From: an uncultured Verrucomicrobia subdivision 3 bacterium
GTDB lineage: Bacteria; Verrucomicrobiota; Verrucomicrobiia; Limisphaerales; UBA11358
Length of the DNA stretch: 64,000 nucleotides
Direction: 5' to 3'
Assembly (NCBI GenBank): GCA_903944085.1
Contig: CAJAQO010000286.1
Coordinates: 11,009 to 75,008, forward strand
Numbering within the stretch: position 1 is the first letter of the stretch; every line of letters starts with the position of its first letter. The translations under genes were made by a program, and so were the position numbers. The notes below the pieces were generated by a model. That model saw nothing but the letters and a program-made list of their open reading frames with translations, searched no databases and was not told where the DNA came from. Shown here piece after piece: positions 10,669 through 64,000 of the stretch.

Positions 10669-10677
10669 GGTAATCCA

Positions 10678-27084: not shown

Positions 27085-27112
27085 CGTAAATCGTAAATCG
27101 TAAATCGCAAAT
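27085..27112. repeat. solo heptamer array (CGTAAAT)x3 + CGCAAAT
   Basis: cgtaaat cgtaaat cgtaaat cgcaaat. The last unit supplies the A and T of the acpS ATG (27111). Same unit as the right arm at 10648-10668. Confidence 0.85.
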
Positions 27113-35133: not shown

Positions 35134-36555
35134 CTAATTGCCCAGCAGCTGCTCGCCAAGCCTCAAAAGTTTCTGCACGGCGGCATCCGATGTCGCCTCG
35201 GCGTAAATGCGCAGCACCGGCTCGGTGCCGGAGCCGCGCAGCATCAGCCACGTCGAATCGGCCGCGACAAATTTCACGCCGTCGCGCGCGTCCACTTTCG
35301 CCAGCGGCGAGCGGAGGAGTTTTTTGGGCGGATTGCTTTTCAGGCGTTCCATGAGCGCGGCGCGTTTTTCCAGCGGATAGTGCGCGTCGAAGCGGGCATA
35401 ACGATGCGGACCAAATTCCTTTTCCAGGCACGCATAAATTTTGTTCACGGAAATTTTTTCCATGGCCAGCATTTCGAGCAGGAACAAGCCGGCCGCCAGC
35501 CCGTCGCGTTCGGGAATGTGATTCGCAAAGCCGACCGAGCCGCTTTCTTCCGCGCCGAACAGCGCGCCGGGCTTCATCAGCTCCGGCGCGATGAAGCGGA
35601 AGCCGATGCCGACTTCCGTGAGCGGCAGATTCCACGCGGCGCACATCTTGTCCACCATCGCGGTAGTATTAAAAGTCTTTGTCACCACGCCGCGATCGCC
35701 GCGATTGCGCACGAGATGATGCAGCAACAGCGCGATGACCTGCTGGTTGGTCAGCGGGCCACCGCGACCGTCCATCGCGCCGATGCGGTCGGAATCGCCG
35801 TCAGTCACGAGGCAAATGTCGTGCGGATTGCGCCGCAACTGCGCGCCACCAAGCGCGTAATTTTTCGGCAACGGTTCCGGGCAGATGCCGCCGAACAGAA
35901 TGTCATGCGCGCCGTTGAGCGTCGTGACGTGGCAAGAAGTTTTGGCGAGCAGCGTTTCAAAGACGCCCGCGCCGACACCAAACAAGGCATCATGCGCCAC
36001 GCGCAATTTTGATTGCGCGATCAACTTGAAATCCACGAGCCGCTTGATGGCGGCGAAGTGCGCGGGGCGGACGTCCAAATTGGCGATTGGCGATTGGCGA
36101 TTGACGATTGATTTGGGAGCGGTTGCGTCCAGAAGTTTTTCCACGGCCTGACATTCTTCCGCGCTGCTGCTGCCGCCGAAATGCGACTTGAGTTTGAAGC
36201 CGTTGAAAATCGGCGGATTATGGCTGGCCGTAATCATCACGCCGCCGACGGCGCCAAGATTTTTTACCGCATAGGAAATGGATGGCGTCGGCGTCGGTTC
36301 CGGCGTGAGCACGACCTTAAAATCATTGCCGGCAAAAACCTCGGCGGTGAGTTGCGCGAAACGGTCGGACAAAAAACGCCGGTCGTAGCCGATGACCACC
36401 TTTGGCTCGCGCCCGAAAATTTCCGATTTCCGATTTCCGATTTCCGATTTCCAAAAATCCGCCGTCGCCTGCGCCACGCGCGCGACGTTGGCAAAAGTAA
36501 AATCTTCCGCGATAACCGCGCGCCAGCCGTCGGTGCCGAATTTGATTTGAGTCAC
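35134..36555 (-). CDS. alpha-D-phosphohexomutase (phosphoglucomutase/phosphomannomutase)
   Basis: FGTDGWRA, ITASHNPPIFNGFK (catalytic Ser loop), VTDGDSDR (Mg site) and GEESG. Carries two translated heptamer arrays (see repeats 36079 and 36421). Confidence 0.85.
   Translation of the reverse strand: MTQIKFGTDGWRAVIAEDFTFANVARVAQATADFWKSEIGNRKSEIFGREPKVVIGYDRRFLSDRFAQLTAEVFAGNDFKVVLTPEPTPTPSISYAVKNLGAVGGVMITASHNPPIFNGFKLKSHFGGSSSAEECQAVEKLLDATAPKSIVNRQSPIANLDVRPAHFAAIKRLVDFKLIAQSKLRVAHDALFGVGAGVFETLLAKTSCHVTTLNGAHDILFGGICPEPLPKNYALGGAQLRRNPHDICLVTDGDSDRIGAMDGRGGPLTNQQVIALLLHHLVRNRGDRGVVTKTFNTTAMVDKMCAAWNLPLTEVGIGFRFIAPELMKPGALFGAEESGSVGFANHIPERDGLAAGLFLLEMLAMEKISVNKIYACLEKEFGPHRYARFDAHYPLEKRAALMERLKSNPPKKLLRSPLAKVDARDGVKFVAADSTWLMLRGSGTEPVLRIYAEATSDAAVQKLLRLGEQLLGN
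36079..36113. repeat. in-frame heptamer array (ATTGGCG)x3 plus 2 degenerate units inside the phosphohexomutase CDS
   Basis: attggcg attggcg attggcg attgacg attgatt, translated on the minus strand as SIVNRQSPIANLD. Confidence 0.85.
36421..36455. repeat. in-frame heptamer array (TTCCGAT)x4 plus 1 degenerate unit inside the phosphohexomutase CDS
   Basis: ttccgat x4 then ttccaaa, translated on the minus strand as WKSEIGNRKSEIF. Confidence 0.85.
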
Positions 36556-44427: not shown

Positions 44428-45144
44428 TTGATTGTTTTCACGCGCGCCGCCGCTTTAATTGTCAGGTCTGTGGCTGAACCCATCGTCAAAATCCGCGAGC
44501 TGACCAAGCTGTATTCCCAAGGCGAAATCCAAGTGACCGCGCTCGACCGCATCACGCTCGACATCGCCGCCGGGGAATTCCTCGCGCTCATGGGACCGTC
44601 CGGCTCCGGCAAATCCACGCTGTTGCACATCATCGCCGGCGTGGACCGCCCGACCAGCGGCCAATGTCTTGTGCAAGGTGTGGATGTGACCAAGCTGAAC
44701 GAATCGGCACTCGCCGACTGGCGCAACCACAATGTCGGCTTCATTTTTCAAACCTTCAATTTGATTCCCGTTTTGACCGCTGCCGAAAATGTGGAACTGC
44801 CGCTGCTGCTCACGCGGTTGAGCCGGACGCAACGTCGCAAGCAAGTTGAAACCGCGCTCGAAGTCGTCGGCCTCGCTGACCGCGCGAAACATTTGCCGCG
44901 CCAGCTTTCCGGCGGACAGGAACAGCGCGTGGCCATCGCCCGCGCGCTCGTGACCGACCCGGCGCTCATCGTCGCCGACGAGCCGACCGGCAATCTCGAT
45001 TCGCACAGCGCGCAAGAAGTTCTTGGAGCGTTGCAATCGCTCCGCAAGGACGCCGGCAAAACCATCATCATGGTCACGCACGATCCGAAAGCGGCGGCGT
45101 TCGGCACGCGGCAAATCCATTTGGAGAAAGGCGAGCTGTCTTGA
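44428..45144 (+). CDS. ABC transporter ATP-binding protein (MacB/LolD type)
   Basis: [11 protein letters not shown] (Walker A), [15 protein letters not shown] and [11 protein letters not shown] (Walker B). Exact start uncertain. Confidence 0.88.
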
Positions 45145-45145
45145 T

Positions 45146-45563
45146 TTCCAATTTTCAATTGCCAATCGCCAATTTGAAATTATGAACGCCGAAGAGATGA
45201 AATTGCGCACGAAAAAATTCGCGCTGCGAATCATGAAGCTGGCGGATTCTTTGCCACGCTCGCCATCGGGTCGAACGTTGGCTGGACAAATTGTGCGGTC
45301 CGGAACTTCTGTAGCGGCCAATTACCGAGCGGCGGGCAAAGGTCGTTCCAAGGCTGAATTCATCGCCAAACTGGGCATTGCCGAGGAAGAAGCCGATGAA
45401 ACTCAATTTTGGCTGGAGTTGATTATCGAGTCTGGAGTGGTGAAAGAAAATTTGATCCAGCCATTATTGCAAGAAGCCCGCGAGTTGACCGCCATCATTG
45501 CCGCCTCGCGGAAATCAACCGCGCAGAATAAATAAATTGGCAATTGGCGATTGAAAATTGGAA
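45146..45563 (+). mobile_element. 418-bp cassette: four-helix-bundle gene bounded by inverted heptamer arrays, inserted at the ATPase/permease junction
   Basis: Left array: ttccaat tttcaat tgccaat cgccaat ttgaaat (45146-45180). Right array: attggca attggcg attgaaa attggaa (45536-45563). The reverse complement of the right array matches the left at 26/28 positions. No transposase is present. Confidence 0.45.
45182..45535 (+). CDS. four-helix-bundle protein (23S rRNA intervening-sequence protein family, TIGR02436/PF05635-like)
   Basis: MNAEEMKLRTKKFALRIMKLADSLP ... GQIVRSGTSVAANYRAAGKGRSKAEFIAKLGIAEEEADETQFWLELI carries the family signature GTS..ANY.EA ... S..(D/E)F..K...A.KEA.ET..WL. Confidence 0.85.
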   Translation: MNAEEMKLRTKKFALRIMKLADSLPRSPSGRTLAGQIVRSGTSVAANYRAAGKGRSKAEFIAKLGIAEEEADETQFWLELIIESGVVKENLIQPLLQEARELTAIIAASRKSTAQNK

Positions 45564-45572
45564 ATACCCGAG

Positions 45573-46718
45573 ATGACCATCCCGACGTTCATCCTAAAAA
45601 ACGCCCTGCGCAACAAGCGCCGCGCGCTGCTTTCCATTTCCAGCGGGGCGGTCAGCTTGTTTCTGTTGGTTACGTTGCAAGTCGCGCTGCGCGAACTCAC
45701 GCTGCCGCCGCAGAGCGCGGGCGCGGAACTGCGTGTCGCGGTGCGAAACAAAATTTCGATCACCAATCCTTTGCCGGTCCGGCAGCGCGGCATCATCGAG
45801 AAAATTCCCGGCGTCGAGGCCGTCACGCCGTTCACCTGGTTCGGCGGAAAATATAAAGGTGAGGAGGGCATGAGCTTTGCGCAATTTGCGATGGACGCGG
45901 ACAAGCTGCATTCCGTTTTTGGCGAGGCGAAGATGAACGGGGACGGCTACGAAAAATTTAACGCCACGAAAGACGCCTGCGTCCTCGGCAAAATCACGGC
46001 GGACAAATATCATTTGAAAGTCGGCGACCAGATGACGCTCGACAGCACGATTTATCCCGGCTCACTTTCGTTTCACATCGCCGGTATTTATTTCGGCACG
46101 CCGGACGACCGCAACATGCTTTTTCGCCAGGATTATCTGGACGAGTCCATCGGCGAACCGGGCTACGTCGGCATGTGGTGGCTCAAGGTGAAATCCGCCG
46201 ACGACATGGTGCCCGTCATCAAGGCAATCAACGCCGCGTTTCAAAATACTTCCGCCGAAGTGCGCGCGGAAAGCGAGCGCAACTTCCAGCTCGGTTTCAT
46301 TTCCATGCTCGGCAACATCAAAACGCTCATCGCGTCCATCAGCACCGTGGTCGTGTTCACGCTCGTGCTCGTCACCGCCAGCACAATGAGCATGGCCGTC
46401 CGCGAACGGTTTCGCGAGCTGGCCATTTTGAAAGCGCTGGGTTTCCGCCGACGCGAATTGTTTGCCTTCATCCTCGCCGAAAGTTTTGGCCTCGCCGTCG
46501 CCGGCGCGTTGCTCGGAATTGGCGGCGCTTACTGCCTCTACACTTTTGGCGACATCGGCAAAATGACGGCGGGAATTTTTGTTTCGTTTGAAGTCACGCC
46601 GCGCATCATGGGCGTTGCGGCGCTCGTCGCTGCGTTGCTCGGAATTATTGCCGCCGTCGCGCCGTCGCTGTCCGTCGCGCGCATGAGCGTGGTGAACGGC
46701 TTGAAAACATTGGATTAA
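45573..46718 (+). CDS. ABC transporter permease (FtsX/MacB-like)
   Basis: N-terminal TM, a large periplasmic loop and a C-terminal FtsX 3-TM bundle with ELAILKALGFRRREL. Confidence 0.85.
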   Translation: MTIPTFILKNALRNKRRALLSISSGAVSLFLLVTLQVALRELTLPPQSAGAELRVAVRNKISITNPLPVRQRGIIEKIPGVEAVTPFTWFGGKYKGEEGMSFAQFAMDADKLHSVFGEAKMNGDGYEKFNATKDACVLGKITADKYHLKVGDQMTLDSTIYPGSLSFHIAGIYFGTPDDRNMLFRQDYLDESIGEPGYVGMWWLKVKSADDMVPVIKAINAAFQNTSAEVRAESERNFQLGFISMLGNIKTLIASISTVVVFTLVLVTASTMSMAVRERFRELAILKALGFRRRELFAFILAESFGLAVAGALLGIGGAYCLYTFGDIGKMTAGIFVSFEVTPRIMGVAALVAALLGIIAAVAPSLSVARMSVVNGLKTLD

Positions 46719-52721: not shown

Positions 52722-53168
52722 TATTTTCTTAAGTGTTAGGTGTGGCGTTGAAGAAGGCGGCGCGGGCTTTGTAGCGCTGAACCGGGTTTTTTTGATCTCG
52801 GCCTCAATCGCAGCCAATTGGCGCTGATGCTCGATGATTTTATCTGGATCTCCCGCGTCGAATGTTTCGACCAACTCCTCGCGCTATTGCGCCAACCGTT
52901 GCAACTGGTGTTCGGGCGTCTCGCCCGATGATCGAACTGGCGGTGAGACGCCGCCGGCACTCGCCGCCGAGGACGGCCGCGCTACCTTGGCTCCGGTTCA
53001 GGGATGCAAGGCGCGAAATTCGTTCTCGAGAAATTCTTGCGGACACCCTTGCTCGGCACATGGGGGGCGATTGCCCGTCAAGTCAGCCGTGAAGCCAAAG
53101 CCAATTTTTATTTCGCCGCCGGTCGCTTCCTGCTAAAACTTTTGCAGGTGGATTTACCCAAACCAGCC

Positions 53169-56100
53169 ATGTCTCCGGTCACCGGCGAACGCCTCGTGCG
53201 CTTCATCGGCGACAAAATCCTTTTCTCCATCAACGCCGGCAGGAATTTCGCCGCGCCGAAAAACTGGCGCGCGCGACTCCGCACCAATCTCGGCCGCGCC
53301 GCCGCCCGCCGCCAAGAAATCATCTCCGCCCATGCCGGCCGGGCGGTGGTCGCCAATTCCTCCTGGCGGGACGTGCCGATGCAACCAACCGCCGAAGGCT
53401 GGGCCATTGAGCTGCCGCTCGCGGAAGTCGGCTACTTTCAGGCCAAGGCTTACCTGCTCGACGAAAAAAACTGGCAGCACTGGCCCGATGGCGCGGACGC
53501 CGGCATTTCGGTGCATCCGAATTTTGCCCGGACGGCGAACACCCTTTACTGCGCCTTCACCCGGCTTTTCGGGGCGACCAAAAATCTCGCGGCCACCGCC
53601 GATGAAAAATTGGATACGCAGTTGAAATCGCTGGAAGCGCAAGGCTACGCCACGCTGCCGCCGTCGGGCAAATTCCGCGACCTCACGCGGCAGTTGCCCT
53701 TCATCGTCAACCAACTCGGCTGCCGGATCATTCATCTCTTGCCGGTGCATCCGACGCCCACGACCTACGCGCGCTTCGGTCGTTTCGGCAGTCCTTACGC
53801 CGCGCTGGATTTGACGGCGGTTGATCCCGCGCTCGTCGAATTCGACCAATGCACCACCGGTATTGACCAGTTTTGCGAACTAACTTACGCGGCACATTCG
53901 CTCGGCGCGCGCGTGTTCATTGATATCGTCATCAACCACACCGGCTGGGGTTCGAGCTTGCAGGAAAATCACCCGGAGTTTTTCCTGAAAAATCCCGACG
54001 GCTCATTCGCCAGTCCCGGCGCGTGGGGCACGGTCTGGGAAGATTTGGTGGAACTCGAACAGCACAGCGTCAAACTTTGGGATCTCATCGCCGACTCGCT
54101 GCTCGTCTGGTGCCGGCGCGGCGTGGATGGTTTTCGCTGCGACGCCGGCTACAAAATTCCCGCGCCCGCCTGGCAATACATCGTCGCCCGCGTGCAGGAG
54201 GAATTTCCCGAAACCATTTTTCTGCTCGAAGGTCTTGGCGGCTCGTGGGACGCGACGGAACTTTTGCTAACCGAAGGCGGGATGCAATGGGCGTATTCCG
54301 AATTGTTCCAAAATTATTCCGGCAAAGAGGTCGCGTGGTATCTCGACTACGCCAGCCGGCAAAATGAACGCGTCGGCAGCTACGTGAATTATTCCGAAAC
54401 GCACGATAACGACCGTCTCGCGAAAAAAGGCCGCGCCTGGTCGCTCCTGCGAAATCGGCTGTGCGCGCTGACCAGTCCGAGCGGCGGTTTCGGTTTCACC
54501 TGCGGCGTGGAATGGCTGGCGACGGAAAAAATAAAAGTCCACGGCAACACCGGCCTGAACTGGGACGCCGCCGAAAACATCGTGCCCGAACTCGCGCAGC
54601 TCAACCAGCTCGTCGCCGATCATCCATGCTTTTTCGACGGCGCAAGACTCACGCGCCTGAGTGCGCCCGATTCACCAGTTTACGCGCTGCTCCGCGAATC
54701 CGCCGAAGGCAAGGATTTCGTTTTAATTTTGGTCAACACGGAGCTGGAAAATCCAAACGCGCTGACGCTCGAAGTTTCCGCTTTCCACTTTCCGCTTTCC
54801 GCTTTTGCGTTTGATTTGCTCGGCCAGCCGCTCCCGAAAATTTCCGCCACCAAAAACGAAATCGCGTTCACACTTCCGCCGGGCGCAGTCTTCTGCCTCG
54901 CGCCGACCGAGAAACCTGCCGGTTTGAGCGGCGATAATTACCGCCGTGTCCGCGCGCAAGCCGCCTGGGCCTTGGAATCATTGAATAAAATCGTTGCCGC
55001 CGAAACCATTGACGGCCTCGACTGGCTGTGGCTCGCGGCGCAGGTTGAATCGTCGCCGAAAAATTTTCTCGCCGCTGCCAGCGAATTCGCCGCGCGCGAA
55101 GCCAAAACTTCGCTCGCCGATTTGTTGGCTGAAGTCAGCGCCGGAAAGGTTTTTCCCCGCGTGGTCGAATGGACATTGCTGGATGCCCGCCGCGTCACGC
55201 TCGTGCCGCCCGGTCATTGGCTGCTGATTGAAGATTCCGCGCCGTTCCGGGCCGAATTGCGAAGTCAGAAGCCAGAAGTCAGAAGTCAGAATGAAACTGC
55301 GGTCACGTGCCACATCCAGTCCATCGCCGTCGGCGACCGGCACATCGCAACATTTGCGCCGCGCGATACAACGGCCGAATCCAATTTAATTGTGGAACGC
55401 TACGCGACCACTTCGCCAAAAGTTTCCGCCGCCATTCGTTTTCTTTCCGCCAATCCGCAATCCGCAATCCGCAATCCGCAATCCGGCGACCTGGTTTTAT
55501 TGACGAATGGTATCGGCGGCATGGCGCGGCTGTGCGTGGACCTGGGCCGCATAAATTCCAAATACGACTGCGCGCTCGGCGCAAATCTGAATCCCGCCGT
55601 GCCGGTGGACCGCCACGTTTTGGTGAAGCGAATCCGCGCCTGGGTGAATGCGGACGGTTTTCTGTCGCCGTTGGATTTCAAAAATCTCGCGTCGTTCCAG
55701 CCCGGCTCGCCGGCCGTCTGGAATTTTGTGGCGAACGCCGGCGACGGCCGCACGGTGGAAATTGAACTGCGCGCGGAAATGCTCGACGGCAAAAACACCA
55801 CCGTTTTTTACTTTCGCCGGCCCACGGAAAAACTCGCACAGGGAAAACAGTTGCCTGCCGACGCCGATGTGCGCTTGACCGTGCGCGTGGACATCGAAGA
55901 CCGGAATTTTCACAGCGAAACCAAACGCAACAGCGGCGCGGATTTCCATTTCGCGTCGAATTGCCATCCGATTGGTAGCAGCCGACGTGAGGAGGCTCAT
56001 TCTAAAAAGGCGCAAGGCGGAAGGCAGAAGGCGGAAATTAATTTGAGCCTCGTCACCTCGGCTGCTACAGAATTATTAACGGGCTTCATCTTCACGCCCG

Positions 56101-57587
56101 CCCCTGACCGCCAGTTGCGCGTCTTTGCCGACGCCGGCGAATATCATCCGCAGCCAGAGTGGTGCGAAAACATTCCGCATCCGGTCGAGCAGACGCGCGG
56201 CCAAACCGGCAGCGGCGATGCCTACAGCCCCGGCTGGTTTGAAATTCCGCTCGCAAAAGGCACCGAGGCAACGCTGGTGCTGACGGCGGAAACGGAGCAA
56301 AGCAAAAGCGGAAAGCGGAAAGCGGAAAGCGGAAAGGCAGAAGCCAATTTTGAAGCGCAACTTGCACGCGCGGCGAAACAATTCGTCGTGCGCCGCGATG
56401 AGGGCAAAACGGTCATCGCCGGCTACCCGTGGTTTCTCGACTGGGGTCGCGATTCGCTGATTTGTGCGCGCGGGCTTTTAGCCGCCGGCATGGTTGACGA
56501 GGTGAGGCAGCTTTTGCTCACGTTCGCCAAATTTGAAAAAGACGGCACGCTGCCCAACACGATTCACGGCAACGACGTTTCCAACCGCGACACGTCGGAT
56601 GCACCGCTGTGGTTCGCGGTCGTGTGCGAAGAAATTTCCAAGATTAAAAATCCGAAATTAAAAACCAAAGATTTTTACGCGACGCTGGTGGATGAAAATG
56701 GCCGCACCCTCCGCGACGTGCTCGCGAGCATCGCCGAAAACTACGCCAAAGGCACGCCGAACGGCATCCGCATGGACGCCGATTCCGCGCTCATCTGGAG
56801 TCCGAGCCATTTCACCTGGATGGACACGAATTTTCCCGCCGGCACGCCGCGCGAAGGTTATCCCGTCGAAATTCAAGTGCTGTGGATTCGCCTGCTGCGG
56901 CTGCTGGCAACTATTTCCGCCAAGACCGATCAAAAGAAATGGCAGGATCTCGCCGAACACGCGCTGGCCTCGTTTGAAAAACTTTTCTGGCTCGAAAATA
57001 AAGGCTGGTTTGCCGACGTGTTGATCGCCAAATCAAATGTCATCGCGCGCGACGCCGCGGCGAGCGATGCATTGCGCAGCAATTGTCTTTTCGCCGTCAG
57101 CCTCGGCCTCGTCACCGGCGAACGCGCGAAACGCTGCGTCGCGGCGGCGCAAAAATATCTCGTCGTGCCGGGCGCGCTGCGCTCGCTCGCACCGCTGCCG
57201 GTGGCCGTGCCGCTGCCGATTTTCAGCAACGACGGACGGCTGATCAACAATCCGCCGGAGCCGTATTGGCCGCGTTACGAAGGCGATGAGGACACGCGCC
57301 GCAAGCCCGCGTATCACAACGGCACGGCGTGGACGTGGACGTTTCCCAGCTTTTGTGAGGCGATCGTGCGTGCATGGGATTTTTCGCCGGCAGCCGTGGT
57401 GGCGGCAAAAGCGCATTTAGTCAGCGCGGAAAAAATTCTGAATGAAGGCTGCCTCGGACAAATCCCGGAAATTCTCGACGGCGACGCGCCGCACACGCAG
57501 CGCGGCTGCGATGCGCAGGCGTGGGGTGTGACCGAAACGCTACGCGTGTGGAAAATGTTGAATTCGCACGCTGCGCAGGCAAAATGA
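53169..57587 (+). CDS. bifunctional-looking GH13 alpha-amylase-family domain + glycogen-debranching amylo-alpha-1,6-glucosidase (GDE_N/GDE_C) fusion
   Basis: GH13 regions: FIDIVINHTG, DGFRCDAGYK, FLLEGLG and YSETHDND. The central part LLTNGIGGMARL ... DRHVLV is GDE_N-like. The C-terminal part is GYPWFLDWGRDSLICARGLL ... YHNGTAWTWTFPSF ... CDAQAWG (GDE_C). The ORF is open from 53004; ATG 53169 is preferred. It contains five translated repeat insertions. Confidence 0.8.
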   Translation: MSPVTGERLVRFIGDKILFSINAGRNFAAPKNWRARLRTNLGRAAARRQEIISAHAGRAVVANSSWRDVPMQPTAEGWAIELPLAEVGYFQAKAYLLDEKNWQHWPDGADAGISVHPNFARTANTLYCAFTRLFGATKNLAATADEKLDTQLKSLEAQGYATLPPSGKFRDLTRQLPFIVNQLGCRIIHLLPVHPTPTTYARFGRFGSPYAALDLTAVDPALVEFDQCTTGIDQFCELTYAAHSLGARVFIDIVINHTGWGSSLQENHPEFFLKNPDGSFASPGAWGTVWEDLVELEQHSVKLWDLIADSLLVWCRRGVDGFRCDAGYKIPAPAWQYIVARVQEEFPETIFLLEGLGGSWDATELLLTEGGMQWAYSELFQNYSGKEVAWYLDYASRQNERVGSYVNYSETHDNDRLAKKGRAWSLLRNRLCALTSPSGGFGFTCGVEWLATEKIKVHGNTGLNWDAAENIVPELAQLNQLVADHPCFFDGARLTRLSAPDSPVYALLRESAEGKDFVLILVNTELENPNALTLEVSAFHFPLSAFAFDLLGQPLPKISATKNEIAFTLPPGAVFCLAPTEKPAGLSGDNYRRVRAQAAWALESLNKIVAAETIDGLDWLWLAAQVESSPKNFLAAASEFAAREAKTSLADLLAEVSAGKVFPRVVEWTLLDARRVTLVPPGHWLLIEDSAPFRAELRSQKPEVRSQNETAVTCHIQSIAVGDRHIATFAPRDTTAESNLIVERYATTSPKVSAAIRFLSANPQSAIRNPQSGDLVLLTNGIGGMARLCVDLGRINSKYDCALGANLNPAVPVDRHVLVKRIRAWVNADGFLSPLDFKNLASFQPGSPAVWNFVANAGDGRTVEIELRAEMLDGKNTTVFYFRRPTEKLAQGKQLPADADVRLTVRVDIEDRNFHSETKRNSGADFHFASNCHPIGSSRREEAHSKKAQGGRQKAEINLSLVTSAATELLTGFIFTPAPDRQLRVFADAGEYHPQPEWCENIPHPVEQTRGQTGSGDAYSPGWFEIPLAKGTEATLVLTAETEQSKSGKRKAESGKAEANFEAQLARAAKQFVVRRDEGKTVIAGYPWFLDWGRDSLICARGLLAAGMVDEVRQLLLTFAKFEKDGTLPNTIHGNDVSNRDTSDAPLWFAVVCEEISKIKNPKLKTKDFYATLVDENGRTLRDVLASIAENYAKGTPNGIRMDADSALIWSPSHFTWMDTNFPAGTPREGYPVEIQVLWIRLLRLLATISAKTDQKKWQDLAEHALASFEKLFWLENKGWFADVLIAKSNVIARDAAASDALRSNCLFAVSLGLVTGERAKRCVAAAQKYLVVPGALRSLAPLPVAVPLPIFSNDGRLINNPPEPYWPRYEGDEDTRRKPAYHNGTAWTWTFPSFCEAIVRAWDFSPAAVVAAKAHLVSAEKILNEGCLGQIPEILDGDAPHTQRGCDAQAWGVTETLRVWKMLNSHAAQAK
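54775..54816. repeat. in-frame heptamer array (TTTCCGC-type, 6 units)
   Basis: tttccgc tttccac tttccgc tttccgc ttttgcg tttgatt, translated as VSAFHFPLSAFAFD. Confidence 0.85.
55261..55295. repeat. in-frame heptamer array (GAAGTCA-type, 5 units)
   Basis: gaagtca gaagcca gaagtca gaagtca gaatgaa, translated as RSQKPEVRSQNE. Confidence 0.85.
55451..55485. repeat. in-frame heptamer array (CAATCCG)x5
   Basis: Five perfect copies of caatccg, translated as ANPQSAIRNPQSG. Confidence 0.9.
55975..56068. repeat. 94-nt in-frame palindromic element: 25-nt terminal inverted repeats around an (AAGGCGG)x4 array
   Basis: The left arm gtagcagccgacgtgaggaggctca (55975-55999) and the right arm tgagcctcgtcacctcggctgctac (56044-56068) are complementary at 23/25 positions. 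Inside lies aaggcgc aaggcgg aaggcag aaggcgg (56007-56034). Translated as SSRREEAHSKKAQGGRQKAEINLSLVTSAAT. Confidence 0.85.
56305..56339. repeat. in-frame heptamer array (AAAGCGG)x4 plus degenerate unit
   Basis: aaagcgg x4 then aaaggca, translated as KSGKRKAESGKA. Confidence 0.9.
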
Positions 57588-57591
57588 CGGG

Positions 57592-58077
57592 ATGAATTTC
57601 CGCAGTAAAATCATCGCGTGGGATCAGTTGCCAGCGTGGCGAAAAAGTTTTCGCGCGAGCGGCAGAAAACTCGTCGTCACCAACGGCTGCTTCGACATTT
57701 TGCATCTGGGCCACGTCACCTACCTGGAAGACGCGCGCAACCGTGGCGACGCGCTGCTCATCGGCGTCAACAGCGACGCGGCGGTGCGCGGCTTGAAAGG
57801 CGCGGGCCGGCCGGTGAATTCGGAGACGGACCGCGCCTCGGTGCTGGCCGCGCTGCAAAGCGTGGACGGTGTCTGCATTTTCACCGACACGACGGCGACG
57901 AAATTTCTCGCCGCCGCGCAGCCGGATATTTACGTCAAGGGCGGCGATTACACTTTGGAGACGTTGAATCAGGACGAGCGGCGCGCGGTGGAATCGACGG
58001 GTGGAAAAATTGTGCTCGTGCCGTTCGTGCCGGGCAAATCCACCACGGGGCTGCTGGAAAAAATTTCACGCCTGTGA
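57592..58077 (+). CDS. hldC: D-glycero-beta-D-manno-heptose 1-phosphate adenylyltransferase (RfaE domain II-like cytidylyltransferase)
   Basis: KLVVTNGCFDILHLGHVTYLEDAR ... LLIGVNSDAAVRGLKG..RPVNSE.DRA.VLAAL..VD.V.IF. Confidence 0.85.
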   Translation: MNFRSKIIAWDQLPAWRKSFRASGRKLVVTNGCFDILHLGHVTYLEDARNRGDALLIGVNSDAAVRGLKGAGRPVNSETDRASVLAALQSVDGVCIFTDTTATKFLAAAQPDIYVKGGDYTLETLNQDERRAVESTGGKIVLVPFVPGKSTTGLLEKISRL

Positions 58078-59138
58078 AAATCCTGGTCATCTCCCTCGCG
58101 GGCATCGGCGACACGCTGATCGCCACGCCGCTCATCCACGAGTTGCGCACCAATTTTCCCGACGCGACCATTGATGTGCTGACGAAAGAAGCCGGCGGCC
58201 GGGATTTGCTGGAAAGCAACCCGTGCGTCAACCGCGTCATCTACAAAAATTTGATGCAGTGCGGCACGTTGGAGACGCTGCGGTTTCTCTGGTCGCTGCG
58301 GCGCGAGCGTTACCAGCTTTCCGTCAATACTCATCCGCAAAGCCGCATTCATTACCGCGCTGCGGCCTTCATTGTGGGCGCGCAGGTGCGAATCAGCCAT
58401 GAATACGAATGTTTCACCTGGCTGGACCGCTGGCTGATCACCGGCACGCTGCCGCAGGATTACGCGCGCCATTCGATCGAAAATAATTTTGACGTGCTGC
58501 CCTTGATTGGCGCGAATAAAAAAATGGCGGCGCATGAAATGGAATTCTTTCTGACGCCGTCGGAAGAACGCTTCGCAGAAGATTTTTTGGTGAAGCACCG
58601 ACTGGTCGGACAGAAAATCCTGGGAATCCACGTCGGTTCCGGCGGCACCAAAAATCTGAGGCTGAAACGCTGGCCCTTAAAAAATTACGCCGGACTGGTG
58701 CGACAATTGAACAAGGAACGACCGGACATCCGCGTCTTGCTTTTCGGCGGACCGGAGGAGGCAAAAGACCATGAAATCATTCTGGCGCAGGCGAACCGCG
58801 AGCTGACGCTGGAGGCGAAGACGAAAAATCTGCGCGAGACGGCGGCGCTGATGAAGCGTTGCAGCGCGTTTTTGAGCGTGGACACGGCGCTGATGCACAT
58901 CGCGGCGGCGATGAAGGTGCCGAATCAAATTGTCATCGAAGCGCCGACGTTGAATGTGACGAACTGGCCTTACGGAAATAATTTCACGCTCGTGAAAAAT
59001 CCGGTGGTGAATGGGCGCGGCCTGGATTTTTACCGCTACGACGGCGGCGACATCAAAGGCACGCGCGAGGAATTGCTCGCCTGCATGGAATCGGTGAAAG
59101 TTCCGGATGTTTTTGCGACCGTGACGAAATTGATTTGA
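58074..59138 (+). CDS. glycosyltransferase family 9 (LPS heptosyltransferase-like)
   Basis: VKILVISLAGIGDTLIATPLIHEL ... KRWPLKNYAGL ... LFGGPEE ... FLSVDTALMHIAAA. GTG start overlaps the hldC stop (GTGA). The upstream part of the 506-aa track ORF is rejected. Confidence 0.8.
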   Translation: MKILVISLAGIGDTLIATPLIHELRTNFPDATIDVLTKEAGGRDLLESNPCVNRVIYKNLMQCGTLETLRFLWSLRRERYQLSVNTHPQSRIHYRAAAFIVGAQVRISHEYECFTWLDRWLITGTLPQDYARHSIENNFDVLPLIGANKKMAAHEMEFFLTPSEERFAEDFLVKHRLVGQKILGIHVGSGGTKNLRLKRWPLKNYAGLVRQLNKERPDIRVLLFGGPEEAKDHEIILAQANRELTLEAKTKNLRETAALMKRCSAFLSVDTALMHIAAAMKVPNQIVIEAPTLNVTNWPYGNNFTLVKNPVVNGRGLDFYRYDGGDIKGTREELLACMESVKVPDVFATVTKLI

Positions 59139-59861
59139 TCAGAGCGAAAAGCCTGCCGCTTTGGCGTCGTTGGCGAACATCTTCACGGTGTCGAGCGAAA
59201 GTTCGTCCAAATCCATGCCGGCCATTTTGATTGCTTTGGCCAGAATATCGTGTGGCACGGTGACAATGTGCGAACCACAGTCGTTCGCCTGAAAAATGTT
59301 CAGCACTTCGCGCACGCTGGCCCAGAGGAGTTCGGCGTGCGGCAAATCTTTCAAAACGGTTTTGCTCTGGGCCATGATGGCCACCGGATCAACGCCCGTG
59401 TCCGCGATGCGGCCGGCAAAAACGGAAACGACGGCCGGAACATTTGGGTTCAAAGCCTCAGTTACGCCCTCAACCTGGGCCAGGGAGAGAATCGCCGTGA
59501 CGTTTAATTTCACGCCTTCCTTCGCCAGTTCCTTGATGAGCGGCAGCGACGATTCTTTGCGCGTGTTGGTGATGGGGATTTTGACGTAAACATTTTTCCC
59601 CCAGCCATTGATCTTCAAACCTTGGCGCTTCATTTCGGAAAACTCGTCGGAAAACACTTCGAGCGACAGCGGCTTGACGGTGATGGTTTGCAGCACGTCC
59701 CGCGCGAACGCCTCGAAATCCGTCAGGCCGGCCTTGCGCATCAGCGTCGGGTTCGTGGTCAAACCTTGGATGAGCGGATTGGCATTCAATTCCAACATGC
59801 CTTTTTTGTCGGCGCCGTCGGCAAAAATTTTCACCGACAAATCTTTCAGGGTTCGCTTCAT
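59139..59861 (-). CDS. transaldolase / fructose-6-phosphate-aldolase family protein
   Basis: VKIFADGADKKGM ... IQGLTTNPTLM ... NVYVKIPITN (Schiff-base Lys) ... LNVTAI ... SVFAGRI. Confidence 0.8.
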   Translation of the reverse strand: MKRTLKDLSVKIFADGADKKGMLELNANPLIQGLTTNPTLMRKAGLTDFEAFARDVLQTITVKPLSLEVFSDEFSEMKRQGLKINGWGKNVYVKIPITNTRKESSLPLIKELAKEGVKLNVTAILSLAQVEGVTEALNPNVPAVVSVFAGRIADTGVDPVAIMAQSKTVLKDLPHAELLWASVREVLNIFQANDCGSHIVTVPHDILAKAIKMAGMDLDELSLDTVKMFANDAKAAGFSL

Positions 59862-59865
59862 AAAA

Positions 59866-60405
59866 TTATTTGTTCGTTTGGGCCAAGATAATGTCAGCCG
59901 CCTCGCCCAGATTGCGAGCGGAAAAATCAGGTTTCTGCTTCAACTCCTCGGCATACCCACGATCAATAAAAATTGTTTTACAGTCCGCCGCATGGCCGCA
60001 ATCCACATCGCGCCAGCGGTCGCCGACCATCCAGCTTTGCGCGAGATCAATGCCAAGTTCACGCGCGGCGCGCAGCAACATGCCGGGTTTGGGTTTGCGG
60101 CAATCGCAGTCGGACAAACCTTTGCCGGCGTGAAAACAAACTTCGACGCGATCAATCGGCAGTTGCGCCAGCATGTGCGCGTGAATTTTTTCGACGACTT
60201 CCTGCTTCAATGTGCCACGGCCGACATCCGGCTGGTTCGTGGCCACCACCAATAAAAATCCGGCGGCTTTCAGTTTGGCACACGCGGCGGGAACTTCGGG
60301 AAGAATTTCAAATTCGGCGAGGCTCGTCGGCGGATATGGCTTGGATTCCTTTTCCAACGCACGATTAATCACACCATCGCGATCGAGAAAAACCGCGCGA
60401 CGCAT
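59866..60405 (-). CDS. gmhB: D-glycero-D-manno-heptose 1,7-bisphosphate phosphatase (HAD-IIIA)
   Basis: MRRAVFLDRDGVIN, VVATNQPDVGRG, CDCRKPKPGML and MVGDRWRDVDCG. The track ORF extends to 60570 through the repeat and into gmhA; ATG 60405 is preferred. Confidence 0.85.
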   Translation of the reverse strand: MRRAVFLDRDGVINRALEKESKPYPPTSLAEFEILPEVPAACAKLKAAGFLLVVATNQPDVGRGTLKQEVVEKIHAHMLAQLPIDRVEVCFHAGKGLSDCDCRKPKPGMLLRAARELGIDLAQSWMVGDRWRDVDCGHAADCKTIFIDRGYAEELKQKPDFSARNLGEAADIILAQTNK

Positions 60406-60434
60406 TTCCGCTTTCCGCTTTCCGCTTTCCGCTT
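60405..60434. repeat. solo heptamer array (TTTCCGC)x4 filling the whole gmhA-gmhB spacer
   Basis: The coding strand reads TAA-aa-gcggaaa-gcggaaa-gcggaaa-gcggaaA-TG. The array runs from the gmhA stop directly into the gmhB ATG. Confidence 0.9.
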
Positions 60435-61031
60435 TTACTTCGTGCTTTCCCATTTGGTCTGGGCAACTTTCAATTTCGGATGCGACACGAACAAATGCCA
60501 GATGACGCCTTGAAACGCCTCGCTGTGCGGCGTGACGTGCGTGGGATTCACCGTCGGGACGATTACGCACGCGGTCGCCTGCTGCGCCGTGTAACCGCCA
60601 TCGCGGCCGACGATGCCGACCACCGAGGCCCCGACCGATTTGGCCACCTGAATCGCGCTGACGAGATTGGGGCTGACATTTTTTTCAAGGTTGCCGCCGC
60701 CAACCGAAAAAATCAGGAGTCCGTCCTGCGCATTGATGCGACTGCCCTTCAACCATTCGGAAAAAACCGTCGCCCAGCCTTCGTCATTCGTGCGCGCCGT
60801 GAGTTCGGAAACATTGTCCGTGGGCGCGTAAGCCTCAAAGCCGCAGATTTTGCGGAAATCATTCACCGCATGGCCGGCGTTGCCTGCGCTGCCGCCCACG
60901 CCGAGGATGAACAGCCGTCCGCCGCGCGCGCGGATGGCGGCCAGTTCGTCCGCGCATTTTTCAATGGCCGCTTCGTCGAGTTGGGCCGTGATCTGCTGCG
61001 CTTCGGCGAGAAATTGTCTGGTAAAACTCAT
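60435..61031 (-). CDS. gmhA: SIS-domain sedoheptulose-7-phosphate isomerase
   Basis: RLFILGVGGSAGNAGHAVNDF ... LLIFSVGGG ... VVGIVGRDGG; context with gmhB, hddA and hddC. Confidence 0.8.
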   Translation of the reverse strand: MSFTRQFLAEAQQITAQLDEAAIEKCADELAAIRARGGRLFILGVGGSAGNAGHAVNDFRKICGFEAYAPTDNVSELTARTNDEGWATVFSEWLKGSRINAQDGLLIFSVGGGNLEKNVSPNLVSAIQVAKSVGASVVGIVGRDGGYTAQQATACVIVPTVNPTHVTPHSEAFQGVIWHLFVSHPKLKVAQTKWESTK

Positions 61032-61076
61032 GGAAATTTCAAATTACGAATTTTTAATGCCGATTGAAAGCAGAGT

Positions 61077-61787
61077 TTATCGCGGCTTCAAAATTGTTTC
61101 CAACTCCGCCAAACCCGCCGGCGAACCCATTTCGTAAAATCGCTCCAGCACTTCGTAGCCGGCCAGTTGCTTTTCGCGGACGAGCCGGCCCATGACTTCG
61201 GCGAGATCAAAAACCTGGTCGGCGGCATACGCATCAAACACCGACGACTTGAACAGGCTCAAGCCGTAGTCAATGTGCCGCATTTCGGGTAGCTTCTGTT
61301 TTTTGTCGTAGATTTTTATTTCGCCGTCGGCAAAAACCACATTGCTCGCGTCATATTTGCCGTCATTGCGATAAACCGTCATTAGGCCGAGCTTGCCGCT
61401 GCGATGAAAGGTTTCCGCGACGGGCGCGTAAGGAATCGGCAGATACGAATCGCCGTAGAGAATAAAAAACTCTTCGCCCAGCTTGGGCAGCGCGCGCTTG
61501 ATCGCGCCGCCGGTGCCGAGCAATTTTTCGCCGTCGAAGGAATAATCGAGCTGGATGCCGAACGCTTCGTTGCCAAATTCGCGCTGAATCATTTCGCCAA
61601 GAAAGCCGATGCACAAAACGACGCGGCGAATGCCGCGCGCGTGGAGCATTTCCAATTGGTGCGCGAGAAACGGCCGCCCCGCGACCGGCACAAGCGACTT
61701 GGGAATTTTTTCCGTGATGGGCCGCAACCGCGTGGCGAGTCCGCCCGCGAGAATGGCGACGGGAATGTTTTCCTGCGTGACGCTCAC
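61077..61787 (-). CDS. hddC: sugar-1-phosphate nucleotidyltransferase (D-glycero-alpha-D-manno-heptose-1-P guanylyltransferase-like)
   Basis: VAILAGGLATRLRPITEKIPKSLVPVAGRPFL. GTG start overlaps the hddA stop (GTGA). Confidence 0.75.
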   Translation of the reverse strand: MSVTQENIPVAILAGGLATRLRPITEKIPKSLVPVAGRPFLAHQLEMLHARGIRRVVLCIGFLGEMIQREFGNEAFGIQLDYSFDGEKLLGTGGAIKRALPKLGEEFFILYGDSYLPIPYAPVAETFHRSGKLGLMTVYRNDGKYDASNVVFADGEIKIYDKKQKLPEMRHIDYGLSLFKSSVFDAYAADQVFDLAEVMGRLVREKQLAGYEVLERFYEMGSPAGLAELETILKPR

Positions 61788-62764
61788 GAGATCACCAGTT
61801 TCGTGCCCTCGAAATCAAATCGGAAGCGCACTTCCTTCAAACCGCTTTGGCGCATCGCGTGACGCAGCTTCGCCTTGGCTTCCGCGTAAAACATCAGGAA
61901 GCCGCCACCGCCCGCGCCGATGAGCTTGCCGCCGAGCGCGCCGTTGGCCAGCGCGAGGTCATACCATTCGTTAATTTTCGGATTGCTCATGCCGCCGCTG
62001 CGCTGTTTTTTGCGCTGCCAGTGGACATCCATCAGCCGCGCGAATTCGTGCAGATTGCCCGATTCCAGCGCGGCTTTGCTTTGCAGACCGAGATCCTTGA
62101 CGAAGTGCAAATTCTCAATCATGGACTTGTCGTCCGCTTTGGATTTGGTGTCCTGTTCCTTCAGAATCGCCGAGGCGCTGCGCGAATAGCCGGTGAAAAA
62201 CAACAGCAGATTATCTTCCAGATTGTCGCGCGTCTCATCGGAAACTTTCAGCGGCCACGCCTCCACTTTTCCGCCTGGCAAAAAGTTGAAGCACGTCAAA
62301 CCGCCGAACGCGGCGATGTATTGGTCCTGCTTGCCGATGGGTTCGTGCAGGCGGTTCAATTCGATGTCGCACGCTTGTTCGGCGAGTTCGGCGGGATGAA
62401 TGAGATCCTTTTTTTGCGCGTGCAAGGCTTTCAGCAACGCCGTCGTGAAACTGCCGGAAGAACCCAGACCGGTGCCGGACGGGATGTCCGCCATCGAGGT
62501 CAGCTCCAGCCCTTGCCCGTCGAGGCCAACGAGATCAAATGCCTCACGAATGATGGGATGCTCGACCTTGGCGGCGCTTTCGACCCGCTCCAGCCGCGAG
62601 TATTTGACAATCAGGTCAGGCGTGAAGTTTTCGTGCAACGTGATGTAAACGTAGCGGTCAATCGCCCCGGCGATGAGAAAGCCGCCGAACTTTTCGTAAT
62701 ACGACGGCAAATCCGTGCCGCCGCCGCCGAGCGAAATGCGCAAGGGTGAACGGGCAATGATCAT
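61784..62764 (-). CDS. hddA: GHMP-family sugar kinase (D-glycero-alpha-D-manno-heptose-7-P kinase-like)
   Basis: MIIARSPLRISLGGGGTDLPSYY ... DIPSGTGLGSSGSFT ... GKLIGAGGGGFLMF. Confidence 0.8.
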   Translation of the reverse strand: MIIARSPLRISLGGGGTDLPSYYEKFGGFLIAGAIDRYVYITLHENFTPDLIVKYSRLERVESAAKVEHPIIREAFDLVGLDGQGLELTSMADIPSGTGLGSSGSFTTALLKALHAQKKDLIHPAELAEQACDIELNRLHEPIGKQDQYIAAFGGLTCFNFLPGGKVEAWPLKVSDETRDNLEDNLLLFFTGYSRSASAILKEQDTKSKADDKSMIENLHFVKDLGLQSKAALESGNLHEFARLMDVHWQRKKQRSGGMSNPKINEWYDLALANGALGGKLIGAGGGGFLMFYAEAKAKLRHAMRQSGLKEVRFRFDFEGTKLVIS

Positions 62765-62768
62765 AAGC

Positions 62769-63220
62769 AAAAGCGGAAAGCGGAAAGCGGAAAGCGGAAA
62801 CTCCCGCGACTACGGTTAAATTTCGTTCTCATAAAATTTTCTTCGTTTTGCGGCCAATGGTAATCAAAATTGCCAGTAATTGACCAGACTCGTCCAGCAG
62901 TTCAGCGATTTGTGCTTCAGATCCAAGACCAGTATCCTGGCAAATTTCCAACCAATAAACCGTCTCGGCGGCTTCCTTTTCCGCCACACCGATTTTGTGA
63001 ACGAAATCGCTTTTGGATTCGGTGCGATTCGCTTCTCGGTAGTTTGCCCCGATTGAAGTGCCAGCCTTAAGCAATTGCCGTCCGATAATTTGTCCCTCGG
63101 CGTTTTTGGGAAAAGCCGCAACCGTTTTGACCACTTGCACGGCAAACTTTCGCGTCCGTTCTTCCAATTCGGTTCGCATACAAATTCAATTTCCGCTTTC
63201 CGCTTTCCGCTTTCCGCTTT
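62769..63220 (-). mobile_element. 452-bp cassette: four-helix-bundle gene bounded by a perfect 31-nt inverted repeat made of GCGGAAA heptamers
   Basis: aaagcggaaagcggaaagcggaaagcggaaa (62770-62800) is the exact reverse complement of tttccgctttccgctttccgctttccgcttt (63190-63220). It sits between the oxidoreductase 3' end and the hddA ATG. No transposase is present. Confidence 0.45.
62829..63179 (-). CDS. four-helix-bundle protein (23S rRNA intervening-sequence protein family)
   Basis: MRTELEERTRKFAVQVVKTVAAFP ... GRQLLKAGTSIGANYREANRTESKSDFVHKIGVAEKEAAETVYWLEI, the same signature as the 45182 gene. Confidence 0.85.
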   Translation of the reverse strand: MRTELEERTRKFAVQVVKTVAAFPKNAEGQIIGRQLLKAGTSIGANYREANRTESKSDFVHKIGVAEKEAAETVYWLEICQDTGLGSEAQIAELLDESGQLLAILITIGRKTKKIL

Positions 63221-64000
63221 GATAAATCTGTTCCACAACGCTCAAAGCTGCTTTCGCCTCCTTCAATCCCGGCACCGGACAACGTTTCAAACGGATGTCT
63301 TCAAAAAATTCCGCCATCTCAATTTTCCACGACTCGTCGCCGCGCGGGAACTCGTAAATGGTCGTTTCCGGCGGGCCCATTTGCGGCAGCATTTTGTAAT
63401 AGGTCAGCCGTTCGATGCCGTAGCTGCCGCCCAGTCCTTCCCAGTGCAATTTGGCGTCGCGCCCATAAATTTCGAGGCTGAAAAGATTTTTCCACTCGCT
63501 GCAACTGACGTGTAGCCAGGCCGTGTTGCCGTTGGCATTGCGCAGGCTTAAAAACGCGTTGTCATCCACGGGCATTTTCCAGAAATACGTTGCCGCATGG
63601 CCTTCGACCGTGGTGAACTCGCCGAGAAAAATTCCCGCGAGATCAATCAGGTGAACACCTTGATCAATTAACTCGCCGCCGCCGGAAAGCTGCGGGTCCG
63701 CGCGCCATTCCTTTTCGTAGCCGATGCGCCCGCCCTGGCCGTAGCGCCCGCGCACAAACATCATCGGGCCGAGCGCGCCGCTGCGGAAAATTTCCAGCGC
63801 CTTCAAGCCGGCCGGATGATAGCGGTGATTATAACCGACGCGGACGAGCGCGCCGGTTTTTTGCGCAGCAGTTTCCAGCGCTTCAAGTTCATTCACCGAA
63901 ATCCCCGCCGGCTTTTCCACCAGCACATGTTTGCCGTTTTTTACCGCCGCCAGCGCGATGGGCGCGAGCAGGGAATTCAGCGTGGCGATGAAAATTACTT
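63186..64000 (-). CDS. Gfo/Idh/MocA family oxidoreductase, 5' end beyond the window
   Basis: HVLVEKP (continues upstream of the track start, own translation: VIFIATLNSLLAPIALAAVKNGKHVLVEKP) plus the C-terminal alpha/beta domain. The last 10 residues, SGKRKAESGN, are encoded by the heptamer array. Confidence 0.8.
   Translation of the reverse strand, partial: VIFIATLNSLLAPIALAAVKNGKHVLVEKPAGISVNELEALETAAQKTGALVRVGYNHRYHPAGLKALEIFRSGALGPMMFVRGRYGQGGRIGYEKEWRADPQLSGGGELIDQGVHLIDLAGIFLGEFTTVEGHAATYFWKMPVDDNAFLSLRNANGNTAWLHVSCSEWKNLFSLEIYGRDAKLHWEGLGGSYGIERLTYYKMLPQMGPPETTIYEFPRGDESWKIEMAEFFEDIRLKRCPVPGLKEAKAALSVVEQIYQSGKRKAESGN

Follow-up and report, generated by a model that had tools for sequence, protein, structure and literature searches.

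Anatomy of the cassette at the transporter junction

A stretch of 64,000 nucleotides, hereafter the window, from an uncultured Verrucomicrobia subdivision 3 bacterium (assembly GCA_903944085.1, contig CAJAQO010000286.1, positions 11,009 to 75,008) carries a cassette of ~0.42 kb between the ATPase and permease genes of an ATP-binding cassette (ABC) transporter. The cassette holds a gene for a four-helix-bundle (4HB) protein between two inverted arrays of tandem heptamers, and it belongs to the same type of module as the intervening sequences (IVSs) of 23S rRNA. Position numbers refer to the window, and numbers beginning with L are labels of the loci compared.

The upstream host gene, an ABC transporter ATPase of the MacB/LolD type (44428–45144, plus strand; PF00005, E 4.7e-36), ends in a TGA stop codon (45142–45144) that is situated at the base of the left arm. 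The heptamers ttccaat tttcaat tgccaat cgccaat ttgaaat follow (45146–45180), and a single t separates them from the ATG at 45182 of the cargo open reading frame (ORF), which encodes on the plus strand a 117-aa 4HB protein of the S23p/23S rRNA IVS protein family (45182–45535; PF05635/TIGR02436). The stop codon of this ORF (TAA, 45533–45535) runs directly into attggca attggcg attgaaa attggaa (45536–45563), after which the FtsX/MacB-type permease begins with an ATG at 45573 (45573–46718, plus strand; PF02687 and PF12704). An inverted-repeat search delimits the two plus-strand arms as 45144–45175 and 45534–45565, 32 nt each and 94% complementary. According to Tandem Repeats Finder (TRF), each is a period-7 array of 4.6 copies, with units of the TTNNCAA/CCAATNN type on the left and of the ATTGGNN type, the reverse complement, on the right. 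The coordinates of both genes, the ORF and the arrays hold as they had been given in an earlier, sequence-only reading of this DNA, and so does its description of the ends as tandem heptamers and of the 4HB gene as sole cargo in an element without a transposase gene. The neighbours within ~3 kb are cytochromes, the ABC ATPase, two FtsX permeases and HlyD.

Folded as RNA, the segment 45130–45580 is predicted to form a single long terminal stem from the two arrays, with a minimum free energy of −161.4 kcal/mol. The whole element then spans 45138–45574 on the plus strand, with 45138–45176 paired to ~45535–45574 and the ORF in the loop, and the ATPase stop faces the permease start at the base of the stem. 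The fold has a z-score of −4.55, and none of 100 shuffles was equally stable. The complementarity of the paired arrays around the 4HB gene is far beyond chance. A promoter and terminator scan found no sense-strand site inside the cassette above shuffles, and an Rfam search of 44900–45800 in E-value mode gave two chance-level matches only.

The cargo protein

The 117-aa protein exceeds the cut-offs of both family models, with 67.8 bits against 33.8 for PF05635 (E 1.1e-18) and 90.3 bits against 24 for TIGR02436 (E 8e-26), which confirms the IVS-protein/four-helix-bundle signature that had been read from the letters. Its AlphaFold2 model shows four helices at a pLDDT of 96.9. In a Foldseek search with this model, 2RLD (BT_0352, TM-score 0.88) and 2GSC (Xcc0516, 0.83) came first, followed by the Avd proteins 8UB7 and 4DWL of diversity-generating retroelements (DGRs; 0.66–0.76). 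All four entries have five chains each, and Xcc0516 is a homopentameric toroid according to Lin et al. 2006, as cited in PMC4990558. By its relation to 2RLD and 2GSC and to the toroid described by Lin et al., the 117-aa protein is probably pentameric too.

The protein matched 10,190 clusters at 50% identity (E <= 1e-3). For eight orthologous cassettes the ratio of nonsynonymous to synonymous substitutions (dN/dS) in the 4HB gene is ~0.07, an approximate value with dS saturated, and it is similar to that of the flanking host genes; the alignments indicate that the ORF is under purifying selection.

Empty, filled, decayed and replaced junctions

The history of the junction was followed in 80 orthologous permease loci from metagenomes together with the GTDB loci L005–L007. 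The closest relative, L085, which is 96% identical in each of the two host proteins, has an empty site with an ATGA overlap of stop and start codon (...AGCCAATGACC / ...GAATTGAGCCAATGACC). An ATGA or GTGA overlap without a cassette also occurs in L090, L095, L098, L106, L108, L110, L117 and L119. The sequence-only reading had taken the cassette for an insertion and had proposed looking for empty sites at orthologous junctions, and the empty sites in close relatives bear out that view. As judged from the aligned junctions, the cassette was inserted precisely in the ATGA overlap, with both host genes left intact.

A homologous cassette occupies the orthologous junction in L088, L092, L122/123, L134 and L005–L007, and the ATPases of the cassette-bearing lineages are 74–92% identical. 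Decayed or rearranged versions exist as well. In L063, from a GTDB metagenome-assembled genome (MAG; JAJXZJ010000069.1, 1471–1791), the 4HB gene is truncated and inverted relative to the operon, with the arms in their usual orientation, as is expected from recombination between inverted arms. In L068 the complementarity of the left arm is lost, and L091 retains only a short relic of the right arm (AAAATTGGGAATGACCA). Other relatives carry unrelated ORF-less heptamer hairpins (85–157 nt) or longer composites at the same place (L101/102, L111, L121, L126, L129, L132, L118 and L089).

On the host-protein tree, junctions with the cassette, without it and with other hairpins are intermixed. Among close relatives, then, the cassette at this site can be present, absent, replaced or decayed. 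The identities of the 4HB proteins track those of the host ATPases (r = 0.59), which argues that the cassette has mostly been inherited at the ABC junction and repeatedly lost or replaced.

The ATPase/permease junction is an insertion hot spot. Heptamer hairpins are also found in some relatives at the junction between the first and second permease. One ORF-less family, with CCAAGCT/AAGCACC arms and a CCAGAGAAG core, occupies two junctions of this one operon in different metagenomic relatives: that between the permeases in L092, L117, L118 and L126, and that between ATPase and permease in L089, L118 and L132. In L089, this hairpin is nested inside another heptamer hairpin.

Occurrence of the module across phyla

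At least 20 metagenome contigs encode the exact 117-aa protein in the same setting. When one genome per GTDB species was scanned, 80 loci with relatives of 42–85% identity emerged. The closest come from Verrucomicrobia subdivision 3, and the others from Bacteroidota, Ignavibacteria, Acidobacteriota, Chloroflexota, Planctomycetota, Nitrospirae, a deltaproteobacterium, a cyanobacterium and a Saccharibacteria bin.

Both flanks were available at 76 loci from ~10 phyla, and the best alignment of the upstream flank with the reverse complement of the downstream flank served as score. Inverted repeats from flank to flank exceeded the 99th percentile of shuffled flanks at 63 of the 76 loci (83%). The median score of matched loci (37.5) lies above the 95th percentile of mismatched-locus pairs (35), so that the complementarity is locus-specific while the heptamer itself varies. 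Together with the second copy in the window described below, the share of loci with inverted flanks shows that the arrays are no coincidence of one locus. Neither of the two observations that the sequence-only reading had named as refuting it was made: gene-bearing orthologous operons carry arrays too, and inverted arrays are seen with other copies of the family.

Of the 76 loci, 37 have a strict period-7 array upstream and 36 downstream at a distance of up to 120 nt from the gene, against 0.019 expected per flank window. The arms mostly measure 31–38 nt and hold four (the mode) or five in-phase copies of a core trimer. In 30 of 42 cases, the start of the left arm falls −4 to +7 nt from the stop codon of a same-strand ORF upstream, and across phyla the right arm often ends just ahead of the next start codon. 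Neighbouring genes are co-oriented with the cassette gene in 58 of 70 cases upstream and 53 of 76 downstream, estimated as not clearly above bacterial same-strand bias and hence left unused.

The host operon need not encode proteins. In five MAGs of Bacteroidota and Ignavibacteria (L041, L055, L061, L071 and L080), the cassette lies between two co-oriented tRNA genes, tRNA-His or tRNA-Arg and then tRNA-Glu, and in L055 the arms (1452–1494 and 1855–1897) touch the tRNA ends (1378–1452 and 1897–1971). Across all 80 related loci, Rfam at the gathering threshold returned tRNAs only, with rRNA at none. Cassettes also occur on cyanobacterial plasmids. On pNPUN01 of Nostoc punctiforme (L165), four copies of GTCGGAG and five of CGACTTC surround the 4HB gene. 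On the Planktothrix agardhii plasmid NZ_LR882964.1 (L166), DISARM drmD and an MmeI-type enzyme flank the cassette, which is found amid long mixed arrays of GATTTAC, AATCCCC, AATCGTA and AATCCCA. These sequence comparisons place the module in many phyla, both at junctions between cistrons and in the gaps between tRNA genes. None of the loci inspected in detail had a candidate transposase linked to the cassette, and a search of viral contigs with close-relative patterns found no relative.

Some further features of these loci may be recorded. The Nostoc cassette adjoins tnsA/Mu-type transposase genes and xisH/xisI. Five MAGs of Terriglobia (Acidobacteriota; L023, L026, L033, L036 and L040) carry 4HB cassettes that are 50–59% identical, have different heptamers and seemingly lie at one junction, where the upstream gene ends in ...CCGG plus stop and the downstream sequence begins with ATGGTGAT.../ATGGCTGA...; possibly this junction is a second insertion site, either long-lived or recurrent. 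In L031, L039, L043 and L045–L047 (Candidatus Angelobacter and other Acidobacteriota), the flanks are inverted repeats without a period of seven, for example TTGCCAAAGAATCCAAATTG ... CAATTTGGATTCTTTGGCA, so that the heptamer organisation is common in the family, not universal.

A second cassette and dispersed arrays in the window

The window contains a second cassette on the minus strand, built on another heptamer and again placed between two co-directional genes. Its cargo is a 116-aa 4HB protein, 40% identical to the first (62829–63179; tblastn E 1.5e-25; TIGR02436 E 3e-26, 91.8 bits). In gene orientation, the period-7 array of the 5′ arm reads (AAAGCGG)4AAA (63190–63220) and that of the 3′ arm (TTTCCGC)4TTT (62770–62800), and the ATG (62764–62762) of a GHMP-kinase-like gene follows 5 nt past the 3′ arm. 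The predicted RNA fold closes on the cassette's own arms (z = −4.54). The upstream neighbour, an oxidoreductase-like ORF (63186–63926, minus strand), has no stop codon ahead of the array and reads through it with the tail SGKRKAESGN, which shows that arrays can alter the termini of host proteins and lead gene callers astray. Many 4HB family representatives measure 125–160 aa, possibly also the result of ORFs extended through arrays.

Heptamer arrays are not confined to the cassettes. TRF reports ~15 period-7 arrays in the window, and a stricter scan counts 13 in the 64 kb against none in 20 shuffles. These arrays agree with the description of dispersed heptanucleotide repeats resembling the short tandemly repeated repetitive (STRR) sequences, with a 7-nt unit, ~4 or more copies and a location between or within genes. 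An ORF-less hairpin at 10601–10673, between two minus-strand genes, consists of four ATTTACG units, an 18-nt loop and 3.7 CGTAAAT units. A solo period-7 array at 27085–27112 has the following gene's ATG at its end, and another on the minus strand, a 31-nt (AAAGCGG)4AAA at 60405–60435, exactly fills the gap between a TAA and an ATG. This 31-nt module recurs in four exact copies and one with a single mismatch over 8.5 kb (54775–63220), and none of the five copies has a fifth full unit. Its constant length argues for a fixed-length copied unit and not for slippage, and the cluster around the second cassette suggests local spread of such a unit.

Arrays also lie in frame inside genes. A phosphoglucomutase/phosphomannomutase-like coding sequence (35134–36555, minus strand) contains ATTGGCG x4.6 (36079–36110) and ATTTCCG x4.9 (36419–36452), which encode ...SIVNRQSPIANLD... 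and ...SEIGNRKSEIFG...; aligned with 1TUO, the homologue from Thermus, both fall into gaps, with 4 and 10 residues more. A 1527-aa ORF (53004–57587, plus strand) holds five in-frame arrays, at 54775, 55261, 55446, 56007 and 56305, with four different units (TTTCCGC, GAAGTCA, TCCGCAA, AAGGCGG, AAAGCGG). Within the same ORF, at ~55975–56070, the AAGGCGG-type array (56007–56036) sits in the loop of an inverted repeat of unique sequence (gacgtgaggaggctca ... tgagcctcgtcac), a layout unlike the hairpins in which the arrays form the arms.

Conservation and polarity of the arrays

The arrays are constrained at the sequence level. Among the eight orthologous cassettes, the left array has a median ungapped identity of 82%, above the 37–53% at 4-fold sites of the adjacent genes, and over 28–30 nt the window's right array matches that of L007 without a difference, despite saturated synonymous sites. 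Within the units, CAAT/ATTG is invariant and 2–3 positions are free.

The arms have a polarity of the form 5′-(GATTNNN)n ... (NNNAATC)n-3′: GAT is in phase in 15 left arms and 1 right arm, and ATC in no left and 16 right arms. A unit-by-unit analysis of compensatory changes in the orthologous cassettes of the CCAAT type gave one clean double change only, the outer unit of L006 (TTTACAA/TTGTAAA versus TTTCCAA/TTGGAAA). The columns are not reliably alignable because units shuffle position.

Proposed explanation and its alternatives

The reading preferred here, to which a probability of roughly 60% may be given, is that of a promoterless, IVS-type selfish cassette inserted at the ABC junction and excised and maintained in the following way. 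Since no promoter or terminator lies in the cassette, it would be transcribed through read-through of the host operon. The two arrays would pair into a duplex of ~35–45 bp and be cut by RNase III, as in rRNA IVSs, which would free the 4HB message and separate the flanking cistrons, and insertion would therefore be nearly harmless. RNase III requires a substrate of about two helical turns, and the stem of the cassette is much longer. Where the host is a tRNA operon, the part of RNase III would fall to RNase P and the 3′ processing enzymes. A further, speculative step is that the pentameric 4HB protein might read the four to five phased heptamer cores, in RNA or DNA, and in this way aid the maintenance or spread of the cassette, the ORF-less hairpins and the solo arrays.

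Several points weigh against this reading. The patchiness of the junction may owe much to loss and replacement rather than to fresh insertion. A search for target-site duplications in 60 stems and at the filled and empty ABC junctions found only TGA...TGA in L005 and L007, which could equally be explained by selection for intact stop and start codons. In an RNA-pairing test on the 60 stems, sense-strand G.U and A.C mismatches were equally frequent (58 vs 59), so that the test gives no strand-specific sign of RNA pairing, and selection for an RNA stem is not claimed. Polarity, array conservation and the G.U result together suggest recognition of a motif by a protein, or a role at the DNA level, and not a mere stem. 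The ORF of the Coxiella burnetii IVS is reported as probably untranslated and decaying (PMC4990558). Finally, RNase III cleavage at the cassette is an extrapolation, and array binding by the 4HB protein is speculative.

A serious rival, although on balance a doubtful one, is a trans-acting enzyme that uses the arrays as multi-site ends, comparable to the subterminal repeats at the ends of Mu, Tn7 or Ac/Ds. The cassette would then be a non-autonomous DNA transposon moved by an unlinked transposase or recombinase, with the 4HB gene as passenger and the ORF-less hairpins and solo arrays as derivatives resembling MITEs (miniature transposable elements with inverted repeats). A cassette that is present in some relatives and absent or replaced by unrelated hairpins in others at the ABC junction would follow readily, as would the CCAAGCT/CCAGAGAAG hairpins at different junctions in different genomes and the fixed 31-nt modules in five places. 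The balance of G.U mismatches, the GATT polarity reading inward at both ends, the cassette inverted between its arms in L063 and the TGA direct repeats around the element in L005 and L007 fit as well. However, in the loci inspected in detail the cassette has no candidate transposase linked to it, and the neighbours here are transporter and cytochrome genes. Further, the heptamers diverge strongly from copy to copy, even in a single genome, a diversity hard to square with one trans-acting enzyme, and the cargo is always one protein family under purifying selection, unexpected for a pure passenger.

A bolder version of the selfish-cassette reading assigns mobility to the cargo itself, and it is put forward tentatively, as an unlikely case. 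The 4HB pentamer would be an element-encoded factor that reads the phased cores, one per subunit, and drives copy-and-paste spread, alone or with a host polymerase, reverse transcriptase (RT) or nuclease. If true, this would define a class of transposase-free mobile elements in many phyla, and would give one answer for the role of the IVS ORF, the nature of STRR/heptanucleotide repeats and the origin of DGR Avd.

Rather improbable is a domesticated regulatory module, in which the 4HB protein would be a regulator and the arrays its operators or RNA sites, tuning the expression of ATPase against permease or mRNA stability, with the dispersed arrays as a regulon of the kind proposed for the 'global regulatory elements' of Geobacter. 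Conservation of the arrays far exceeds the neutral expectation, and they stand exactly at stop and start codons; the gene evolves under purifying selection, and the cassette has persisted at the ABC junction where the ATPases are only 74–92% identical; four- and five-heptamer elements of Geobacter have, in addition, been interpreted as regulatory (PMC2700814). Yet the closest relative manages with a plain ATGA overlap and no cassette, and other relatives have unrelated hairpins at the junction. The module also occurs in tRNA operons, defence operons and rRNA, and arrays lie inside coding sequences, a distribution that fits a parasite better than a dedicated regulator.

Very improbable, too, is the origin of the arrays as ordinary slippage-prone simple sequence repeats (SSRs) that arose in situ in AT-rich intergenic DNA and pair only incidentally. 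Heptamers are indeed reported to be over-represented among bacterial SSRs, with strain-variable copy number (PMC4692102; PMC4990558). Against this stand the 13 arrays of the window compared with none in shuffles, the lack of a fifth full unit in all five (AAAGCGG)4AAA copies, a complementarity of left and right arms that is locus-specific across phyla, the consistent polarity, and the conservation of the arrays against saturated synonymous sites. Least credible of all is that the 4HB gene encodes a DGR accessory protein Avd or is a DGR remnant: its fold resembles bAvd (TM-score 0.66–0.76) and PF05635 has been described as Avd-like (PMC10053308), but the closest structures, 2RLD and 2GSC, are stand-alone S23p-family proteins, and the reading was rejected because cytochromes, the ABC ATPase, two permeases and HlyD adjoin the cassette instead of an RT or template/variable repeats (TR/VR).

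Significance

The PF05635/TIGR02436 family is very large and, to our knowledge, no function is known for it outside DGRs. The present analysis shows that its genes travel together with inverted heptamer arrays as one defined module. This module settles precisely at the borders between co-transcribed genes in mRNA, tRNA and rRNA operons, and is gained, lost and replaced among close relatives. This brings rRNA IVSs, heptanucleotide/STRR repeats and stand-alone Avd-like proteins into one testable system.

There are also consequences for annotation. Arrays lengthen or break called ORFs, as in the C-terminal tail of ORF 63186–63926. Further, 23S_rRNA_IVP genes have been noted inside cas operons, and cassettes in defence and cas operons have been scored as 'associated' genes (PMC3936711).

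Comparison with known systems

Integron cassettes share with the heptamer cassette a promoterless single ORF that needs transcription from outside. They are, however, stacked in an array, whereas heptamer cassettes are single and scattered at operon junctions. An integron cassette was rejected as an identification: there is no attC, no integrase or attI nearby, and the arms are symmetric on both sides.

MITEs, repetitive extragenic palindromic sequences and bacterial interspersed mosaic elements (REP/BIME) and the Rickettsia palindromic elements are likewise small, without a transposase, and form hairpins at intercistronic sites; they too show presence/absence polymorphism, and some are tolerated in frame within genes. 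They differ in having a unique terminal inverted repeat or palindrome in place of 7-nt arrays that vary between copies, and they do not carry the conserved protein gene in the loop.

DGR Avd (4DWL, 8UB7) has the same 4HB fold and pentameric relatives, and binds nucleic acid in an RT–RNA complex. In contrast, no RT or TR/VR adjoins the cassette, and sequence similarity to Avd is undetectable by hidden Markov model.

Closer to the arms themselves are the heptanucleotide arrays of cyanobacteria (STRR), Xanthomonas and Geobacter. GGGAATC in Xanthomonas and GGGGATT in Nostoc have been treated as G-quadruplex formers (Rehm et al. 2015, PMC4692102), and 70 convergent inverted array pairs were counted in Xanthomonas campestris (PMC4692102). 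The four- and five-heptamer elements of Geobacter metallireducens were read as 'global regulatory elements' (PMC2700814). Like the arrays of the window, these comprise ~4–5 or more heptamers between or inside genes, often as convergent inverted pairs; they have GATT/AATC-type cores and are transcribed with their neighbours. The papers on these arrays (PMC4692102, PMC2700814) draw no link to PF05635 genes, whereas here the arrays bracket one, an arrangement confirmed on the Nostoc punctiforme and Planktothrix plasmids.

The closest counterpart is the 23S rRNA IVS with an S23p ORF, known from Coxiella burnetii, Leptospira, Brucella and Xanthomonas (PMC4990558). The sequence-only reading knew of no described element with the architecture of the cassette, a claim that does not stand, since this IVS has it. 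In Coxiella burnetii the IVS is a 428-nt 'selfish element' with a 28-bp terminal inverted-repeat stem that is cut by RNase III, an S23p ORF, and three or four tandem heptamers GACAGAT just 5′ of the ATG (PMC4990558). Mobility of IVSs was proposed by Ralph & McClelland 1993, as cited in PMC4990558. The cassette shares the size (~420 nt), the long terminal stem (~32–40 bp), the PF05635 ORF in the loop, the tandem heptamers before the ATG and the lack of a transposase, and both kinds of element occur in short ORF-less versions beside ORF-bearing ones. Excision by RNase III, shown for rRNA IVSs, would hold for the cassette by extrapolation.

In a literature search that left most subscription journals outside its coverage, PF05635-flanking heptamer arrays were linked only in the Coxiella IVS, and the general module with its junction-specific insertion was not found described, so that a prior description is possible. 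The differences from the IVS are nevertheless clear. The cassette lies in the stop/start overlap of a protein-coding operon, IVSs in 23S rRNA (helix 45 or 25), both arms of the cassette are wholly heptamer arrays, and the cassette ORF is clearly under purifying selection whereas that of Coxiella is reported to be decaying. Collectively, the cassette belongs functionally with the rRNA IVSs and hence is not without precedent; what appears new is its occurrence in protein-coding and tRNA operons, the heptamer-array ends as a rule, and the tie to dispersed heptanucleotide repeats.

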